64,000 nt of DNA from Leptolyngbyaceae cyanobacterium. GTDB taxonomy: Bacteria > Cyanobacteriota > Cyanobacteriia > Phormidesmidales > Phormidesmidaceae. Below, in pieces: positions 12,362 through 63,398 of this stretch (the first letter of the stretch is position 1; each line of letters starts with the position of its first letter). The DNA lies in the NCBI GenBank assembly GCA_965263355.1, contig CBDHHL010000035.1, positions 1 through 64,000 of the forward strand, read 5' to 3'. The notes under the pieces were generated by a model. The model did no database searches. It was not told where the DNA came from and saw only the letters and a program-made list of their open reading frames with translations. Made by a program: the position numbers and the translations under genes.

Positions 12362-12754
12362 TCAGGCAGTCTCAGAAAAGTTAGTAACTTTCGCTGAAGA
12401 CTCAAGTGCGGCCTCCTCTGATTCAAAGACCTGCCCGCCATAAAATTCTTCCCCTTCCTCGTCCGTGTACGCCCCTAGCCTGCCGCCTAACTGGACATAG
12501 GCACGAGCCATTACATAGCTATCATCGCTTAGCCGCACGATTTGGGCGGCAACATTGCTGGATCGATGGAAAACACCGTATTTCATATTCTTTCTCCTTT
12601 TAATTAATTCATCAATAGCAGCGGACTTGTTGTCCTGTTTATCCAGCCACTCTGCCGCCTCAGGGGACAGCATAAAGGGGCCTACCCGTTTTGTGCGACC
12701 AGAGGGCTTGCGGCCTGCCCCCTGTCGCTTGCCTCCGTGCCCCTTCTTAGGCAT
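12362..12754 (-). CDS. AT-hook/RHH-like regulator fused to a small unknown domain
   Basis: HGGKRQGAGRKP, then a beta-strand and LSPEAAEWLDKQDNKSAAIDELI. Confidence 0.6.
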   Translation of the reverse strand: MPKKGHGGKRQGAGRKPSGRTKRVGPFMLSPEAAEWLDKQDNKSAAIDELIKRRKNMKYGVFHRSSNVAAQIVRLSDDSYVMARAYVQLGGRLGAYTDEEGEEFYGGQVFESEEAALESSAKVTNFSETA

Positions 12755-13090: not shown

Positions 13091-13294
13091 ATGCCAAGAA
13101 AGAAAATAGGCGTCGCCCAGTGGGGGTGTTCGCTACCAATCAAGGCTAGAAAAGAACTCAAGGAAGTACTCAGAAACCTTGACTGCCTCTACAATGGGCA
13201 GCCAAGCTTAGGGGTTTTCCTTACAAGAATCTGGAAGGGTGAGTTAGTCGTCTCAAAAAAAATTGAGATGACTATTGACAAGGATAACCTCTAG
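13091..13294 (+). CDS. Small basic putative regulator upstream of the cassette island
   Basis: 67 aa, MPRKK start; overlaps the first cassette promoter. Confidence 0.45.
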   Translation: MPRKKIGVAQWGCSLPIKARKELKEVLRNLDCLYNGQPSLGVFLTRIWKGELVVSKKIEMTIDKDNL

Positions 13295-13339
13295 AAGTTA
13301 TAACTGAATCAGTTAAGGCAAGGAGCCGAAAGAAAGATG
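13275..13339 (+). promoter_or_regulatory. Promoter-operator-RBS cassette, copy 1
   Basis: TTGACA-18-TATAAC, palindromes ATAAC(C)TCTAGA(A)GTTAT and TAACTGA-A-TCAGTTA, RBS AGGAG. 47 bp identical to 14342-14388. Confidence 0.85.
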
Positions 13340-13660
13340 ACAGCATTAGCCATTCTGAACACCACCATCGCTACCACTGATGGTGTATTCGAGGTCAAAA
13401 CTATTGACCTTGACACTGCCAAGGCCCTAGTCACGTCTAACTCACTAGACAGCGCAGTAGGGCATCAGTCCACTGCTGACGTGATGTCTACTCTCTTAGG
13501 GGTAGACATCCCCATGAATCGTCAAATGTTCGCTCAGAAGCCAGGTCAACAGGCCTTAGTTTTCAAGCTCAACGGACGTCCTCAGGAGGGGCAAATTATG
13601 AGCGCCGAGGAGATTGAAGAGATGGGTTACAGCTTTAAGCTGATGACCAGAACCGCATAA
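13337..13660 (+). CDS. acrIII-1: DUF1874 / STIV B116 / YddF family, AcrIII-1-type cA4 ring nuclease (anti-type III CRISPR)
   Basis: 107 aa with family motifs ILN, SAVGHQSTA (catalytic His), MNR, G..ALVFKLNGR..EG....EE. Confidence 0.85.
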   Translation: MTALAILNTTIATTDGVFEVKTIDLDTAKALVTSNSLDSAVGHQSTADVMSTLLGVDIPMNRQMFAQKPGQQALVFKLNGRPQEGQIMSAEEIEEMGYSFKLMTRTA

Positions 13661-13723
13661 CCGAAACCTAGGGGGCCTTCCCCCGATGGTCTGCCCAGTG
13701 TTGTGGCTGGGCACTGATGAGGT
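13660..13723 (+). ncRNA. Hammerhead ribozyme (type II topology)
   Basis: ACC-GAAA(13663-66); stem III ACC/GGU with GGGGG/CCCCC hairpin; GUC(13689-91); stem I UGCCCAG/CUGGGCA; CUGAUGA(13714-20); GGU. Confidence 0.85.
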
Positions 13724-13728
13724 AGCTG

Positions 13729-13911
13729 ATGACAATAACTAAAGCTCAAGTAGTCAGCAGCATAGCCTTCTGTGCTGTAAGTATGGCTAGTGCTAAAGCA
13801 GTGCTAGCCGAAACAGACAAGCCTCTCGCTGCAGCGCAAGGGGTAACCCAAGCTCTGGTCGGGGGTTTGGCAATGACATATTTGTACAGTAAAAAAGGGT
13901 TAATAAAATGA
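13729..13911 (+). CDS. Small hydrophobic protein
   Basis: Two hydrophobic segments; stop overlaps the next ATG. Confidence 0.5.
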   Translation: MTITKAQVVSSIAFCAVSMASAKAVLAETDKPLAAAQGVTQALVGGLAMTYLYSKKGLIK

Positions 13912-14334: not shown

Positions 14335-14398
14335 TTGACGGGGATAACCTCTAGAAGTTATAACTGAATCAGTTAAGGCAAGGAGCCGGAGAAAGATG
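14335..14398 (+). promoter_or_regulatory. Promoter-operator-RBS cassette, copy 2
   Basis: TTGACG plus the same 47-bp core as copy 1, ending at ATG 14396. Confidence 0.85.
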
Positions 14399-14716
14399 CC
14401 AGCTTTTAAGATAGGAGCAGGGAATCTATCGAGCAGAGATTTTCCTTCTCGCGACAAAACTAGCAAGATCAAATTCGATGTATTCCAAAAGGAATACATC
14501 GAAGACAGCAGAAGATTTCTCTTCTGCTGGAAGTACCACGGCACCTATCTCATTAGGTGCTGGGTAGAGGTCGACGGGGTTACTGTTAATGTCCCAAGTG
14601 ACAAGCAGTGGACATGCGACCCCGGACGAGCTAAGGCAAGTGACCCATCGGTCACAATGTTACAGATTGAGGTCGAACTGGCCTCATTCATAGAATATGC
14701 GGAATGGGGAGGTTAA
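14396..14716 (+). CDS. Hypothetical protein under the cassette promoter
   Basis: Start defined by the cassette RBS. Confidence 0.7.
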   Translation: MPAFKIGAGNLSSRDFPSRDKTSKIKFDVFQKEYIEDSRRFLFCWKYHGTYLIRCWVEVDGVTVNVPSDKQWTCDPGRAKASDPSVTMLQIEVELASFIEYAEWGG

Positions 14717-14762
14717 ATACTCAGTCTCATGTTCCCGAGATCGTCCCAAACGCCAGAGTAAC
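14713..14762 (-). repeat. 50-bp duplicate of the 3' end of ORF 15215..16117
   Basis: 45/50 identical to 15215-15264; both encode YSGVWDDLGNMRLSI*. Confidence 0.9.
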
Positions 14763-14793
14763 ACTGAATCAGTTAAGGCAAAGGAGCCGAAAA

Positions 14794-15214: not shown

Positions 15215-16117
15215 TTAGATGCTTAATCTCATGTTCCCGAGATCATCCCAAACGCCAGAGTAACTGTGATTTCCCTGGTGGTCGCGGGAACTCTGCTCAC
15301 AAATATTCCACAACCATAAATCAGCGCCATGATGTTCGCATTTGGCGCTGATTTCTCTATATATCTGTATTTGCGCTTTTCTGATAATAGACAGGTCCAC
15401 TGTAGACAATGCCGACGTCTCAAGCGCGACCTTAAGCCCAGCTCTTTGCAGTTCTCGCCAGAATGGGGGGAGATAATTTAGCCGCATTAGCGAAACTGAC
15501 CCCATGGCTGATATCTTCATCCACTGCACAGGGCCAACCTGCTTAGGAATTTCAGACTTTGTTCGATACAGGCTAATATAATCAGCCCCGATAAAACCTG
15601 AGGCAATGCCCTGTAAGTCTTCCAGTCGAGTTAGGATACTATCGCGATCGCTTTGCTGACGCATTCTATGCGATGAAATCCAAAGTTCTAATTCAGGATA
15701 TTCCGCATGGATGGATTTATAAAATTGAACTATTTCTGTCCAAAGATCGGTGTCACCACATAGGGTTAGCTCGCCTGCCAAGGTTATTTTTTTTATTCCT
15801 CGGCTGACACAGTGATTAACGATTGGTCTGGCTAGGTTGTTGACATGACCTTTTAAGGCTAAAGAATCTCGGCCTTTTAGCTCAGGATAACGGCAGACAA
15901 TTGGGTGAATGTGGATGTCGAGCCCGTCGGCCTGATCAAGTTGTTTGTCAAGCTCGGTTAAATCTGGGTTAGTGCCAAAATTGCCAAAATTGTCTCTTGA
16001 CACAGTAAGGCCATAGATCTTTCTGAAATCAGCCGCGATCACAGGCTTGATGCCATTGGCCCTAATTACATTTTGAGTGGCCAGTTTGTCAGGCGGGAAT
16101 TGAGAATAAAGTTGCAT
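15215..16117 (-). CDS. Hypothetical protein, possibly a glycoside-hydrolase-like TIM barrel
   Basis: Alternating beta/alpha pattern and C-terminal GVWD weakly reminiscent of GH10. Last gene of the tail operon. Confidence 0.35.
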   Translation of the reverse strand: MQLYSQFPPDKLATQNVIRANGIKPVIAADFRKIYGLTVSRDNFGNFGTNPDLTELDKQLDQADGLDIHIHPIVCRYPELKGRDSLALKGHVNNLARPIVNHCVSRGIKKITLAGELTLCGDTDLWTEIVQFYKSIHAEYPELELWISSHRMRQQSDRDSILTRLEDLQGIASGFIGADYISLYRTKSEIPKQVGPVQWMKISAMGSVSLMRLNYLPPFWRELQRAGLKVALETSALSTVDLSIIRKAQIQIYREISAKCEHHGADLWLWNICEQSSRDHQGNHSYSGVWDDLGNMRLSI

Positions 16118-27122: not shown

Positions 27123-27449
27123 TTAGATGGTGTTGGCTGCCTTAGATTGCCAATAGCGGTACTTTTTAATAGCAGAATCAAAGCACTCTTTAAGAGTTCC
27201 GTTGACTTGATTTCGTAGGGGTTGCCATGATCTGTCTTTGGTGTAGTTTGTAACCACTTCAAAGAAAACCTCATATCCTGGCTGACCAATCCAGTTAACT
27301 CCGTATCTTGTGCCGACAATCTCAATGCAGTTAGTGCCAACGGCCTTGAGTTGAAAGTTTTGATTTTCTGCAAGAGCCTTTAGTTCGGGCATTTGCTGCA
27401 AAAAAAGCAACTGGTTGGACTGACGAAAATCAGAAGGACGCATAATCAT
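27123..27449 (-). CDS. Hypothetical cassette protein
   Basis: Own promoter, AAGGAG RBS and terminator. Confidence 0.7.
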   Translation of the reverse strand: MIMRPSDFRQSNQLLFLQQMPELKALAENQNFQLKAVGTNCIEIVGTRYGVNWIGQPGYEVFFEVVTNYTKDRSWQPLRNQVNGTLKECFDSAIKKYRYWQSKAANTI

Positions 27450-57882: not shown

Positions 57883-58971
57883 ATGATGCATAGAATCCCA
57901 GAGCTACTTAAGCGGAACAGCCTGATAGGGGCTGCTATTGTTGGGCCAGACGGAAAGTTCTGGGATGTAAATGAGACTCTGTGTGAAATACTGGGTTATC
58001 AACGAGAAACGTTGCTGCGCCTAACGTTCCAGCAGATCAGCCATCCTGAAGATCTAACGCCTCAGGTCAACCCATTCCGCAGCGTAATCAATGGAGAACT
58101 TAAATCTTTCACGCTGAAAAAGCGCTACAAGCATGGACAAACAGCAGAATGGATCTCTTGCACGTTGCACTGCGAAGGATTCCATTCTGAGTCTGGAGAA
58201 TTCCTTTATTTCTTTTCCCAAGTCAGTAAGCTTGGCGACAAAGAGCTGACAGAGGTTGAAACACAAAGGCTTTCAGAAATAAAATACGCAATCAACAACA
58301 ACGGATTTGCCCTGCATTATCAGCCGATAGTTGACCTGAAAACCGATGAGACCGTTGGTTATGAGGCGTTGTCACGATGGGCAAAAGACAATGAATTAAT
58401 CTTCCCAGGGGATTTCTTGCCTTTACTGAGAAAGGCAAACAGTGAACACTTACTGTGCTACTGGGTAATTGAGCAAACCCAGGCAGATTCAATCAAGATT
58501 GGCCAGTGGATCAGCTTTAATATCAGCCCATTCACTCTAGCTAGAGCAGATTGGCACGATCAAAAGCTGCCTGTTAGAGGGCATATGGAGATATTGGAGA
58601 CTGAGGCTGTTTCTGAGGAGATTCAGAGCCGGATTCAGTCAGCTAGGCGGACAGGCGTAAAGATCGCCCTGGACGATTTTGGCACCGGATACTGCAGCTA
58701 CGATAGATTGCTGAAAGGCCAAGTTGACCTAGTAAAGCTCGATAGATCTATTATTAGTGGCCTGCCTGCTCGCGAATCCAGAGTAATGGTTGACGCAATT
58801 GTGGCGCTATCGCAAAAACTCAGCATCAAAGTTATCGCTGAAGGCGTGGAAACCCAGCAACAGGCCGACATGTTGAAAGCAATCGGCTGTGACATGGCGC
58901 AGGGCTATTTGTTCGGTCGGCCTGCGCCACTACCCGCGATCACTCGCTCTTCGTCGGGGGCCATTCACTAG
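57883..58971 (+). CDS. PAS-EAL protein (c-di-GMP phosphodiesterase)
   Basis: PAS (VN...C..LGY....L....HPED); EAL motifs YQPIV, EAL, NIS, EILE, DDFGTGY, KLD, AEGVE, QGYLFGRP. Confidence 0.9.
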   Translation: MMHRIPELLKRNSLIGAAIVGPDGKFWDVNETLCEILGYQRETLLRLTFQQISHPEDLTPQVNPFRSVINGELKSFTLKKRYKHGQTAEWISCTLHCEGFHSESGEFLYFFSQVSKLGDKELTEVETQRLSEIKYAINNNGFALHYQPIVDLKTDETVGYEALSRWAKDNELIFPGDFLPLLRKANSEHLLCYWVIEQTQADSIKIGQWISFNISPFTLARADWHDQKLPVRGHMEILETEAVSEEIQSRIQSARRTGVKIALDDFGTGYCSYDRLLKGQVDLVKLDRSIISGLPARESRVMVDAIVALSQKLSIKVIAEGVETQQQADMLKAIGCDMAQGYLFGRPAPLPAITRSSSGAIH

Positions 58972-60811: not shown

Positions 60812-61140
60812 GTTTCAGCCCCTTGAAACGGATTGAAGCCTTGGCAGCGTATAGCACCATGCCCCGCAAATCAGGGAACGTTACAGTTTCAGTCCCTTGG
60901 TAGGGGTTGAAGCCTTGGCAGCTATCTGCATCATTACTTACTGCATTACTGCGATGATGTTTCAGTCCCTTGGTAGGGGTTGAAGCTTTGGCAGCTCAGG
61001 ACCGCATAGACCAGCTCAAGCCAATAACAGGTTTCAGTCCCTTGGTAGGGATTAAAGCTTTGGCAGCTTGGCTCATGGCTAATAGTTCGTTTCCACCAGG
61101 TGCGTTTCAGTCCCTTGGTAGGGATTAAAGCTTTGGCAGC
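60812..61140 (-). CRISPR. CRISPR mini-array: five 37-bp repeats, four spacers (37/36/35/36 bp)
   Basis: GTTTCAGTCCCTTGGTAGGG(G/A)TT(G/A)AAGC(C/T)TTGGCAGC at 60812 (degenerate), 60886, 60959, 61031 and 61104. The degenerate left repeat and minus-strand 3' GAAAC end imply leftward transcription. Confidence 0.97.
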
Positions 61141-61199: not shown

Positions 61200-61465
61200 A
61201 AAATGGCAATTTTGCCAAAGCTTTAATCCCTGTTTTTCAAGGTTCTTCTTTTGGCCTCGCTTAGCTTTGCCAAAAAAAGTTGAGACTGTTCGCCATAGAT
61301 CCGGCGAATCTATAAGGGCCTTACGGACTCCTTTTGCTCCTATCTTGCCTTTCGGCTGGTGTTTATCGGTTTCCCGACAAAAGATACCCATAGCCCCCTA
61401 GAGAACCTTAGCGCTGAAGCCATCCAACAACGTTTCCGCTGCCTTGTCGCCCAAACTGCGATGTC
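61200..61465 (-). ncRNA. Putative tracrRNA in the array leader
   Basis: 19-nt perfect anti-repeat at 61213-61231; candidate minus-strand promoter TTGGCG-17-TAATAT (61497-61469). Boundaries approximate. Confidence 0.65.
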
Positions 61466-61513: not shown

Positions 61514-61714
61514 ATGGGAAAAGAGAATAGAGAAGGCAGGATTTACGCGCGCATCAAGCAAAGCCGTAAACAAAAGCTAGAGCAGTATTGTAGACTTTGG
61601 GATATATCGATAGCAGACCTATTGGAACGCTTTATTGATATGCTGCCAGAGCTGCCGCAAAACGACGTACAAAATAATGAAGACGATCAAGGTAAAAGTC
61701 CAGCCGACTCCTGA
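61514..61714 (+). CDS. Ribbon-helix-helix regulator overlapping the effector start
   Basis: RIYARIKQSRKQKLEQYC....ISIADLLERFIDMLP. Confidence 0.75.
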   Translation: MGKENREGRIYARIKQSRKQKLEQYCRLWDISIADLLERFIDMLPELPQNDVQNNEDDQGKSPADS

Positions 61715-63398
61715 AACACTGATTAAATACGAGAAAATTTGCAGAGAGCTTGAATGGTTGTGGAACTATGTGAGGGCCGTAGCCTTACATAATCACTGCC
61801 TTGAATGGTATGCGTGGGCCGAGGGGAAAGGCGCTGACTTGTCAGGCTGCATTAGAACGCCGTTACGCTTTTCAAAGAGTGGCGGTTGGAATGGAGCGAC
61901 TTGTCAGATTGCTAAAGGGGGTCCGTATTTTAAGAAGTCAGATAAAGCTCCTTTAATCCACTATGACGATGGCAAAACGAAACAAGGCTATGAATTAGTA
62001 GCTGGGGATAAGCCATATGAGCCAATAAAGCCAGAGCGTCATAGATATCGCGAAGTCTCTTATTCAAGTAAAGGCAACTCAATGACCCGTTCCAGTAAAA
62101 GCACCTCAATAACCCGCGAGCTAAAAGGAAAAGGTTGGGGCCTAGACAATATGGCGTTACTAAATGCGTCACGAAGTTCTCAGGGTCTTGATGAATTAAC
62201 TTGCCATAGCGATTTTGTTGGAGGGCTACTAGCTGACTTTGAAGTTGCTTGGAAGGCTTATTTAGACGGGAAACTGCCCGCCAGAAAGCAGCCAAAGTAT
62301 AAGGACGGCAAGCAGTGTAAAATTAGCACGTTGAACAATAATCAAAAAGCCATCCCGTTCAAAAAAGGACAATTCGACGGTCAAGGCTTAGTTTTAGAAC
62401 CGTGCGATCGCAGCTATTCAAAAAGACTCGAAGGCTATGTAATAAAGACTTACAAACTGATATTAAAACCGAGTGGCTTCTATCTATGCCTAACTACTCA
62501 AAGTGAAGCGGAAGAAGAAAATAGATTAGAACTTAAACGACAAAAAAGAGTTTTAACCGCTATCAAGAAAAAAGTTATTGATGGCATTAAAGGGGAAAAG
62601 GAGCAAGCCAAGGCGTTAGCTAACAGTGAAGACTATCAAACGGCATTAGCCAAGAAAAAGTCAATAGAAAATGAGCTGCCATACTTGCTAATAGAAGACT
62701 CAAAATGCGCTAAACGAACCGGGCATATGGCGGGCATTGACCCTGGCGTTAAGGCAATTGTAGCGACTGACGAAGGTCATTTATTTAATCCTAACGAAAG
62801 CAGACAACGAATACACAATCATATTGAAAAGCTGCAATCCAAGCTTGATATTATGATTGAGAAAAATGATAAGCGGCTAGGACAAAAATGGAAGGGAGGG
62901 CAGCGGCGAGCCTCCAATAACGAGCAAAAACTTAGGGGCAAAATATCCAGACTTCATGAGCGAGCCGTTAATAGTTCAAATGCTTTCAATCATAAATTAT
63001 CAACCAGGTTAGCCAGAACTTATGATGTCATTGCTTGGGAGGCTACGGCGTTAACTAACATGGGGAGGCAGACAACGCCTAAATTAGCTGAAGATGGAAG
63101 TTATTACGAGCAAAACGGCAGAACAGCTAAGGCAGGATTGAACAGATCCTTGAAAATAGCCTGTATGGGCGACCTTAGAACTAAAACAAAATCTAAATTA
63201 GAGGAAGCCGGGAAATTATACATAGAGACGGAGGCTAGATACTCATCACAACGCTGTCATTGTTGCGGGGGAAAAGGCATCAGGCCAGCCCAAGATACGT
63301 TTATTTGCGTAAATGAGAGCTGTAGCCTATTTGAACAGAAGCAAAATGCAGATGTTAACGCCGCAAGGAACCACAAGAAAAGAGGAATTACAGAATAA
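61677..63398 (+). CDS. cas12: TnpB-derived type V CRISPR effector (~573 aa; Cas12f/V-U2 C2c8-like, subtype uncertain)
   Basis: MKTIKVKVQPT start; RuvC-I GIDPG, RuvC-II IAWEA, Zn finger SSQRCHCCG...CVNESC, RuvC-III NADVNAARN; adjacent array. Confidence 0.85.
   Translation: MKTIKVKVQPTPETLIKYEKICRELEWLWNYVRAVALHNHCLEWYAWAEGKGADLSGCIRTPLRFSKSGGWNGATCQIAKGGPYFKKSDKAPLIHYDDGKTKQGYELVAGDKPYEPIKPERHRYREVSYSSKGNSMTRSSKSTSITRELKGKGWGLDNMALLNASRSSQGLDELTCHSDFVGGLLADFEVAWKAYLDGKLPARKQPKYKDGKQCKISTLNNNQKAIPFKKGQFDGQGLVLEPCDRSYSKRLEGYVIKTYKLILKPSGFYLCLTTQSEAEEENRLELKRQKRVLTAIKKKVIDGIKGEKEQAKALANSEDYQTALAKKKSIENELPYLLIEDSKCAKRTGHMAGIDPGVKAIVATDEGHLFNPNESRQRIHNHIEKLQSKLDIMIEKNDKRLGQKWKGGQRRASNNEQKLRGKISRLHERAVNSSNAFNHKLSTRLARTYDVIAWEATALTNMGRQTTPKLAEDGSYYEQNGRTAKAGLNRSLKIACMGDLRTKTKSKLEEAGKLYIETEARYSSQRCHCCGGKGIRPAQDTFICVNESCSLFEQKQNADVNAARNHKKRGITE

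Follow-up and report, generated by a model that had tools for sequence, protein, structure and literature searches.

A predicted type II hammerhead ribozyme on the stop codon of an AcrIII-1-family gene in a probable cyanobacterial phage

Type II hammerhead ribozymes, which combine a short stem II with a pseudoknot, have been described in prophages, where they flank single genes or blocks of genes (PMC3088659). For these prophage hammerheads the formation of operon- or gene-length mRNAs was proposed, and clustered examples cleave in vivo (PMC3088659). They usually need the pseudoknot between loop I and the 3' tail for speed, and its disruption leads to large rate losses (Perreault et al. 2011, PMC3088659). 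In reviews, the function of phage self-cleaving ribozymes is called open (PMC6765202, PMC6155905). The term "stop codon" is absent from the main text of these three articles, and no title or abstract dealing with stop-codon-flush phage hammerheads was found; supplements may mention the layout. RNase E, J and Y prefer RNAs with 5'-monophosphate ends, which is relevant in cyanobacteria too (PMC10939160).

The hammerhead analysed here resembles the described type II ribozymes (RF02276, PMC3088659) in its core, its topology, its stem I, which is a member of a common 22-nt architecture, and its site between small phage genes. It differs from them in its canonical pseudoknot of loop I and 3' tail, which has a U-U mismatch. 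Its SD-like site lies within the core and the next ATG 8 nt behind it, in contrast to the usual 15-40 nt, and it is a single copy and not part of a cluster. The gene in front of it belongs to the AcrIII-1/DUF1874 ring nucleases, like SIRV1 gp29, STIV B116 and AFV3-109, with which it shares the PF08960 domain, the histidine of the GH motif, N8, two arginines and the carriage by a virus. In SIRV1 gp29, H47 is the catalytic histidine and cA4 is bound by N8, R66 and R85 (bioRxiv 10.1101/778746).

Structure of the hammerhead and its pseudoknot

For identification of ribozymes in the window, which is the whole 64-kb stretch of DNA that was analysed, we applied the Rfam models, as suggested in the initial annotation of the locus. 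The type II hammerhead model RF02276 matches at 13659-13731 (+) over model positions 1-66 with 49.9 bits, against a gathering cut-off of 37 (E 2.9e-7), and is the sole Rfam match at gathering level within the 64 kb. No other ribozyme was found in the window at this level or at E≤5. The ribozyme itself covers 13660-13723 (+). GAAA (13663-13666), GUC (13689-13691) and CUGAUGA (13714-13720) are present at the positions named in the initial annotation as a complete core, and every position of the core consensus agrees (C3-U4-G5-A6-N7-G8-A9 at 13714-13720, G12-A13-A14-A15.1 at 13663-13666 and U16.1-H17 at 13690-13691). The stems described there were also recovered. Stem I consists of seven perfect Watson-Crick pairs (13692-13698 with 13707-13713) and could be extended by an eighth pair, U-G. 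Stem III is formed by A13666-U13690, C13667-G13689 and C13668-G13688 and continues over a 2x3 internal loop into a 5-bp G-C hairpin (13671-13675 with 13680-13684). The short stem II (A13660-U13723, C13661-G13722, C13662-G13721), computed at only about -3.3 kcal/mol, overlaps the stop codon of the AcrIII-1 gene by exactly one base, A13660. Loops close stems I and III, stem II is open and the G10.1-C11.1 pair is present (8/3/3 pairs), which is the topology of type II. The predicted cut after C13691 agrees with the intact core and the GUC triplet. The comparison with the models confirms 13660-13723 as a genuine hammerhead of a known class, correctly recognised from sequence, and its intact core makes self-cleavage likely.

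A structural descriptor with comparable stem length (sum ≥13) gave one match in 40 simulated 64-kb sequences, and the hammerhead is thus more than a chance match. Global minimum free energy folding was uninformative (z -1.6; 13 of 200 shuffles were equally stable). The descriptor also matched at 27353-27426, where the stems are weak (4/3/4), and this match was taken as chance. Without a second credible ribozyme, the window lacks a unit flanked by ribozymes that could circularise.

From 5' to 3' on the + strand, the element starts with the 5' strand of stem II (13660-13662), with which the stop codon shares its last base, A13660. It is followed by the core bases G12-A13-A14, the stem III hairpin and the GUC triplet (13663-13691), up to the predicted cut. 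This part is the 3' hairpin that would remain on the acr mRNA, with a computed energy of -12.6 kcal/mol. The hairpin of stem I (7-8 bp) and loop I at 13692-13713 would form the 5' end of the downstream product. The core CUGAUGA and the 3' strand of stem II, GGU, take up 13714-13723, and the 3' tail reaches from 13724 to 13737. In the canonical register of the pseudoknot, 13725-13728 of this tail pairs with 13701-13704 of the loop.

Among 37 relatives with the same architecture, the four pseudoknot positions are occupied by U/C-G in 37/37, G-C in 37/37, a Watson-Crick pair in 36/37 and U-A or U-G in 35/37. The window has U-G, G-C, U-U and U-G at these positions, the mismatch being U13702-U13727, and its canonical duplex reaches -0.4 kcal/mol versus -4.1 kcal/mol for the subfamily. 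Because of the U-U mismatch, the rate of the window ribozyme is perhaps below that of its relatives, and its activity may be reduced. A shifted register is possible, in which 13732-13737 pairs with 13699-13704 (6 bp, -4.5 kcal/mol). It has an offset of 11 nt, where 2-6 are usual, and spans codons 2-3 of the next gene, at which two homologues of the downstream protein carry other residues. This perfect pseudoknot was our first reading and was downgraded after a chance control, since the G/U-rich loop pairs equally well with 589 of 1595 random 20-mers.

The acrIII-1 gene, its neighbourhood and its relatives

The upstream gene (13337-13660, +) encodes a protein of 107 aa and ends with TAA at 13658-13660. 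PF08960 matches residues 4-99 with 97 bits against a cut-off of 26 and represents a whole-protein domain. Matches in the PDB are 2j6b, 2j85 and 2x4i (AFV3-109, STIV B116). In an alignment of 53 proteins N8, R62 and R81 are invariant, and H43, which lies in the GH motif, is found in at least 90%. Judging from this motif and a constant offset of four residues, H43, R62 and R81 would correspond to H47, R66 and R85 of gp29. These findings support the family membership behind the earlier label AcrIII-1, and cleavage of cA4 by the window protein is predicted from the family. Because a close SIRV2 homologue was reported not to be an anti-CRISPR in native infection (10.1101/2023.01.10.523387), AcrIII-1 is used here as a family name and not as proof of anti-CRISPR function.

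The region is virus-encoded, as genes for terminase, portal, head protease and major capsid protein are located in the window, and by its gene content it is a tailed phage or prophage. A cyanobacterial host is probable, because among named relatives of the acr gene the closest belongs to a prophage of Leptolyngbya sp. PCC 7375 (81% protein identity). A promoter-like site precedes a series of small + strand ORFs, of which the acr gene is the first. This sigma-70-like promoter candidate (TTGACA, 18 nt, TATAAC) at 13275-13304 (+), with a second copy at 14335-14364, is a putative one. A consensus scan missed the copy at 13275-13304, and the last base of its -10 hexamer is C. Between the -35 and -10 hexamers, an identical near-palindromic, operator-like 18-mer is found at 13284-13301 and 14344-14361. 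It resembles a repressor operator, and the ORFs 13091-13294 (+) and 12362-12754 (-) are candidate regulators by position only. A repeated leader with an AAGGAG Shine-Dalgarno motif (13303-13336, +) occurs in three copies, starting at 13303, 14363 and 14763. Contigs from a single study, which may stem from the source sample, show numerous alleles and are joined across these repeated leaders, which is consistent with a shuffled cassette region around the acr gene. A 55-nt direct repeat (87%) at 14713-14767 and 15215-15269 flanks an ORF of 162 aa, and population contigs join across this repeat as well.

From the acr stop to the next ATG at 13729 there are 68 nt, which consist entirely of the ribozyme. 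The ORF starting there (13729-13911, +), 8 nt after the core, encodes a hydrophobic protein of 60 aa with no assigned function and no match in Pfam or PHROG. Five database proteins of 60-61 aa are 78-100% identical to it, one of them fully, and all five start at the equivalent Met. As its sole SD-like site, this ORF has GAGGU at 13719-13723, which falls within the core and stem II and stands 5 nt upstream of the ATG. Its duplex with the anti-SD motif was computed at -7.0 kcal/mol. Starts are seldom this close. Of 165 type II hammerheads whose downstream DNA was long enough (IMG/VR matches listed), 125 have an SD-preceded start within 70 nt, and in only 4 of these 125 does it lie within 12 nt.

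The initial annotation had implied a special link between the ribozyme and the anti-CRISPR gene. In total, 146 acrIII-1 loci were scanned with the descriptor, corresponding to 118 non-redundant loci and 825 kb of non-redundant sequence. A hammerhead occurs at only 1 of these 118, and the same layout is seen with about 105 unrelated protein clusters among the matches listed, so that the implied link is not supported. In 118 other non-redundant loci the descriptor found no complete hammerhead downstream of acrIII-1. The single case (L068, 1263-1312) is a clear type II hammerhead with stems 8/4/7, which lies directly upstream of acrIII-1 and 6 nt past the stop of the previous gene. Rfam was run on 59 of 66 acrIII-1 loci and found no hammerhead at gathering level, missing L068. 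The loci L075-L081 and L497-L576 were covered by the descriptor only, and twister-type ribozymes were counted outside these. Within the 59 loci, twister-sister matches lie 49 and 500 nt upstream of acrIII-1 (L037 58-125 and L009 2432-2500).

The closest relative of the locus is the prophage of Leptolyngbya sp. PCC 7375 (L004/L006). It is alike in that its acr gene belongs to a run of small genes and in that 34 nt of the 5' half of the ribozyme (window 13661-13694) are found there with 100% identity. The acr gene itself is only 70% identical with a longest exact run of 17 nt. Unlike in the window, a spacer of 69 nt with another hairpin separates the acr stop from this half, the 3' strand of stem I and CUGAUGA are absent and the next gene is a different one. 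A fitting CUGANGA partner strand was not found in 100 kb of the prophage. A trans-acting partner was considered and rejected, as the single genome-wide 12-mer match looks like coding sequence. RF02276 gave nothing in the PCC 7375 genome among the 150 of 1190 candidates that were scored. The 34-nt half is probably a recombination scar.

Relatives of the whole ribozyme were searched more widely. In IMG/VR, two exact patterns gave no close relative: one recovered only the PCC 7375 half, and of the 37 matches of the other, 1 is a hammerhead, which is unrelated. GenBank phages contained none, and 172 genomes of its family again only the PCC 7375 half. RF02276 matched in 1 of 150 genomes of its order, in a cyanobacterial sequence (L459, 1350-1556) where a tandem pair of type II hammerheads lies in TGTG-rich repeats of low complexity and no ORFs flank it. 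Within the window population, acr alleles of about 84% identity run into the same 13661-13690 sequence (contigs of one study). In the contig comparison, 40 of 199 substitutions were listed and none of them falls in 13660-13740, a count that is not a measure of variation inside the ribozyme. The pairing of acr gene and ribozyme is therefore stable in this lineage and not a trait of the family.

Stop codons at phage hammerheads

To place the overlap with the stop codon, hammerheads were collected by three IMG/VR pattern scans and a structural descriptor. This yielded at least 184 distinct type II, at least 109 type I and at least 89 type III hammerheads. After dropping those with less than 250 nt of upstream DNA, 170 type II, 103 type I and 85 type III were kept among the matches listed. 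A hammerhead was called flush when an ORF of 50 or more codons has its stop within 3 nt of the first paired base of the ribozyme; ORFs were called mechanically and the search patterns were fixed. By this definition, among the matches listed, 118/170 type II (45 of them overlapping the stop), 37/103 type I and 0/85 type III hammerheads are flush, with p 2e-31 for type II versus type III. The 118 flush type II ORFs (matches listed) form 105 protein clusters, and with one hammerhead per ribozyme cluster about 92/139 are flush, so that the layout is not an effect of pseudo-replication. Type II cores outside the search pattern are flush in 34/52 cases (matches listed). A contrary count comes from the type II cores that were recovered in the type I and type III scans and a genome search, with only 1/7 flush among the matches listed. 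In these sequence comparisons, no layout is commoner among the sampled phage type II hammerheads than the stop-codon overlap, which is not specific for acr genes.

The distances are sharply distributed. Among the type II matches listed with at least 450 nt upstream, 32/125 have their stop 2 nt before G12, which is the peak and also the spacing of the window, against a background mean of 0.19 per offset further upstream. Of all type II matches listed, 75/170 have a stop at 1-3 nt from G12, and 32/170 combine the window's spacing with a stem II of at least three pairs. TAG is enriched at stops 1-2 nt from G12 (34/47 vs 103/482, matches listed), which is expected if a stop base is shared with stem II. 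A conserved A before stem II was tried as the cause of stop-like letters and rejected, since A occurs in about half of the flush and the non-flush ribozymes alike (matches listed). Of the non-flush type II hammerheads, 21/37 also show a stop triplet in one of the frames at 1-6 nt before G12 (matches listed). The frequency of A and of stop triplets helps to explain the origin of the overlap, but not that long ORFs end there. Type II hammerheads with short loops and without a clear pseudoknot are common in the sample (matches listed).

The stop-to-cut distance is never below 20 nt in 145 type II hammerheads (matches listed). Stem III starts 5-6 nt past the stop in 71/144 type II matches listed and ends 1 nt before the cut, which is partly built into the descriptor, and a count of type II hairpins is circular, since stem III belongs to the descriptor. 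For the mechanism, the type III hammerheads are the most telling comparison. Type III hammerheads have their stops mostly 20-40 nt away, and 38/85 have none within 60 nt (matches listed). Their own 5' part gives no hairpin. Where a type III hammerhead has its stop no more than 60 nt away, a hairpin of -8 kcal/mol or below was computed for the 35 nt behind the stop in 33/47 cases among the matches listed, versus 10/61 other ORF ends of the same loci (p 1e-8). By eye, these added hairpins begin about 5-13 nt past the stop (matches listed). In the type III loci L211-L333, an accessory G-C-rich hairpin abuts stem III in most of those with a nearby upstream stop, and several long hairpins are nearly identical.

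A dense group of type II hammerheads was observed at one locus (L123), where at least 10 copies lie within 3.7 kb. Their pseudoknots covary and an SD motif is located right behind each of them.

Cleavage and translation at the gene boundary

The ribozyme of the window is itself ordinary. What carries value is the family-level contrast among the matches listed, with 118/170 type II flush versus 0/85 type III, the latter usually with an added hairpin. It turns the question of the purpose of phage ribozymes into two predictions, protected mRNA ends versus ribosome gating.

We consider it reasonably probable that the type II hammerhead serves as RNA punctuation in a phage operon of small accessory genes and that its position results from tight packing. 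Most likely, cleavage would separate the acr message from the downstream cistrons, as proposed for prophage hammerheads (PMC3088659). Starting at the promoter candidate 13275-13304, the acr gene, the 60-aa ORF and further small ORFs would be transcribed as one RNA. Self-cleavage after C13691, expected from the intact core at a rate possibly below that of the relatives, would leave an acr mRNA that ends 31 nt past its stop with the G-C-rich stem III hairpin and a 2',3'-cyclic phosphate. This computed hairpin would act as a terminator-like, presumably protected 3' end without stopping transcription. The downstream mRNA would carry a 5'-OH and the stem I hairpin, together with its own SD and start, and would be a poor substrate for 5'-monophosphate-dependent nucleases. 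A stabilised 5'-OH product is plausible because of the end preference of RNase E, J and Y (PMC10939160). As cleavage gives separately ended messages, the two genes would get separate stabilities. The overlap with the stop would be the end point of tight packing, in which the ribozyme abuts or shares the stop. No spacer is needed because stem III already supplies the 3' hairpin, so that the ribozyme can sit flush on the stop. The acr gene would be one of many interchangeable passengers. Judged by the layouts, the simplest account is that with every hammerhead type the upstream message would have a 3' end protected by a hairpin, no less than about 20 nt past the stop, and the downstream message would begin with a structured 5'-OH end. 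Some findings speak against punctuation. With the U-U mismatch at a pseudoknot position that is Watson-Crick in 36/37 relatives, this copy may be slow. PCC 7375 keeps half a ribozyme after the same gene, and since this closest relative has only the half, cleavage would be dispensable there. In addition, the sharp peak at 2-3 nt (matches listed) would also follow from selection for ribosome contact.

Such a contact is central to the explanation that cleavage is gated by translation, which we regard as unlikely. A ribosome terminating on the acr stop would hold stem II and G12-A14, and one initiating at ATG 13729 would cover CUGAUGA, stem II and the tail, so that the ribozyme would fold only without ribosomes, cleavage would report on translation and the flush position would be selected for this. 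Termination at 13658-13660 would place the ribosome over stem II and GAAA, and initiation at 13729 would place it over CUGAUGA. Translation and folding would therefore compete physically. This steric incompatibility follows from the coordinates and the geometry of the ribosome, and transient unfolding of stem II and GAAA by the terminating ribosome can soundly be expected on steric grounds. The stops at 1-3 nt from G12 in 75/170 type II hammerheads (matches listed), the start 8 nt after the core, where only 4/125 lie within 12 nt (matches listed), and the common Met of all five downstream homologues are in line with gating. However, type III hammerheads are located between like phage genes with their stops mostly 20-40 nt away, and because they are never flush (0/85, matches listed), the general function does not depend on contact with the ribosome. 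The 69-nt spacer in PCC 7375 also argues against gating, and stem II, at about -3.3 kcal/mol, should refold fast between ribosomes. Ribosome-gated control appears as the lesser rival to punctuation and finds no support in the comparisons. Doubtful, too, is a design rule, not found in the literature searched, with the order stop, about 5-13 nt, strong hairpin and cut in every phage hammerhead. Type II would use its own stem III flush on the stop and type III an accessory hairpin, and flush type I and II cores would lie under the terminating ribosome, giving translation-gated cleavage. The window copy would then be gated from both sides, which would tie the processing of the anti-CRISPR message to ribosome traffic.

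It is rather improbable that the ribozyme is decaying or weak and has been retained chiefly for its 3' hairpin and as a short stretch of homology through which related phages exchange cassettes. The U-U mismatch with its weak pseudoknot duplex (-0.4 vs -4.1 kcal/mol) fits with decay, as do the 34 identical nt of the 5' half in PCC 7375 next to an acr gene of 70% identity and without a CUGAUGA partner in 100 kb. The diverged acr alleles that share 13661-13690 and the contigs joined across repeated leaders would agree with exchange. However, the core bases and the three stems are all intact, the shifted 6-bp pseudoknot (-4.5 kcal/mol) could substitute, and a missing clear pseudoknot is common among short-looped type II matches listed. 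Very unlikely is a device specific for acr genes, which would tune timing or half-life of the ring-nuclease mRNA or shield it from RNA targeting by type III CRISPR. The type II hammerhead directly upstream of acrIII-1 at L068 and the twister-sister matches at L037 and L009 are compatible with it. Against it stand the descriptor matches in only 1/118 non-redundant loci, none of them complete downstream of the gene, the Rfam result for 59 of 66 loci, though L068 was missed, and the occurrence of the layout after about 105 unrelated protein clusters (matches listed). For distinguishing punctuation from ribosome gating, the locus is a handy test case, as the activity predicted for its upstream gene, cA4 cleavage, can be assayed and the intergenic region has only 68 nt. 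Natural variants are available with the half ribozyme in PCC 7375 and the single pseudoknot mismatch in the window.

Several further elements were observed in the window. Between 26548 and 28165, a 46-nt element that contains the inverted motif TGTCAAG...CTTGACA occurs four times, each time beside a small minus-strand ORF, and represents a second repeated promoter/operator family. A gene with PAS and EAL domains (57883-58971), c-di-GMP phosphodiesterase-like, is the second predicted cyclic-nucleotide-degrading protein besides AcrIII-1. A CRISPR-like mini-array at 60812-61140 consists of five 37-nt repeats and four spacers of 35-37 nt, which have no match elsewhere in the window or in the other loci examined. 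A 19-nt inverted copy of its repeat, a possible anti-repeat, lies at 61213-61231 and is followed by an ORF of 587 aa (61635-63398) with Cas12f1-like TNB and OrfB_IS605 domains. Mini-array and 587-aa ORF are a candidate for a compact type V system at the end of the phage.
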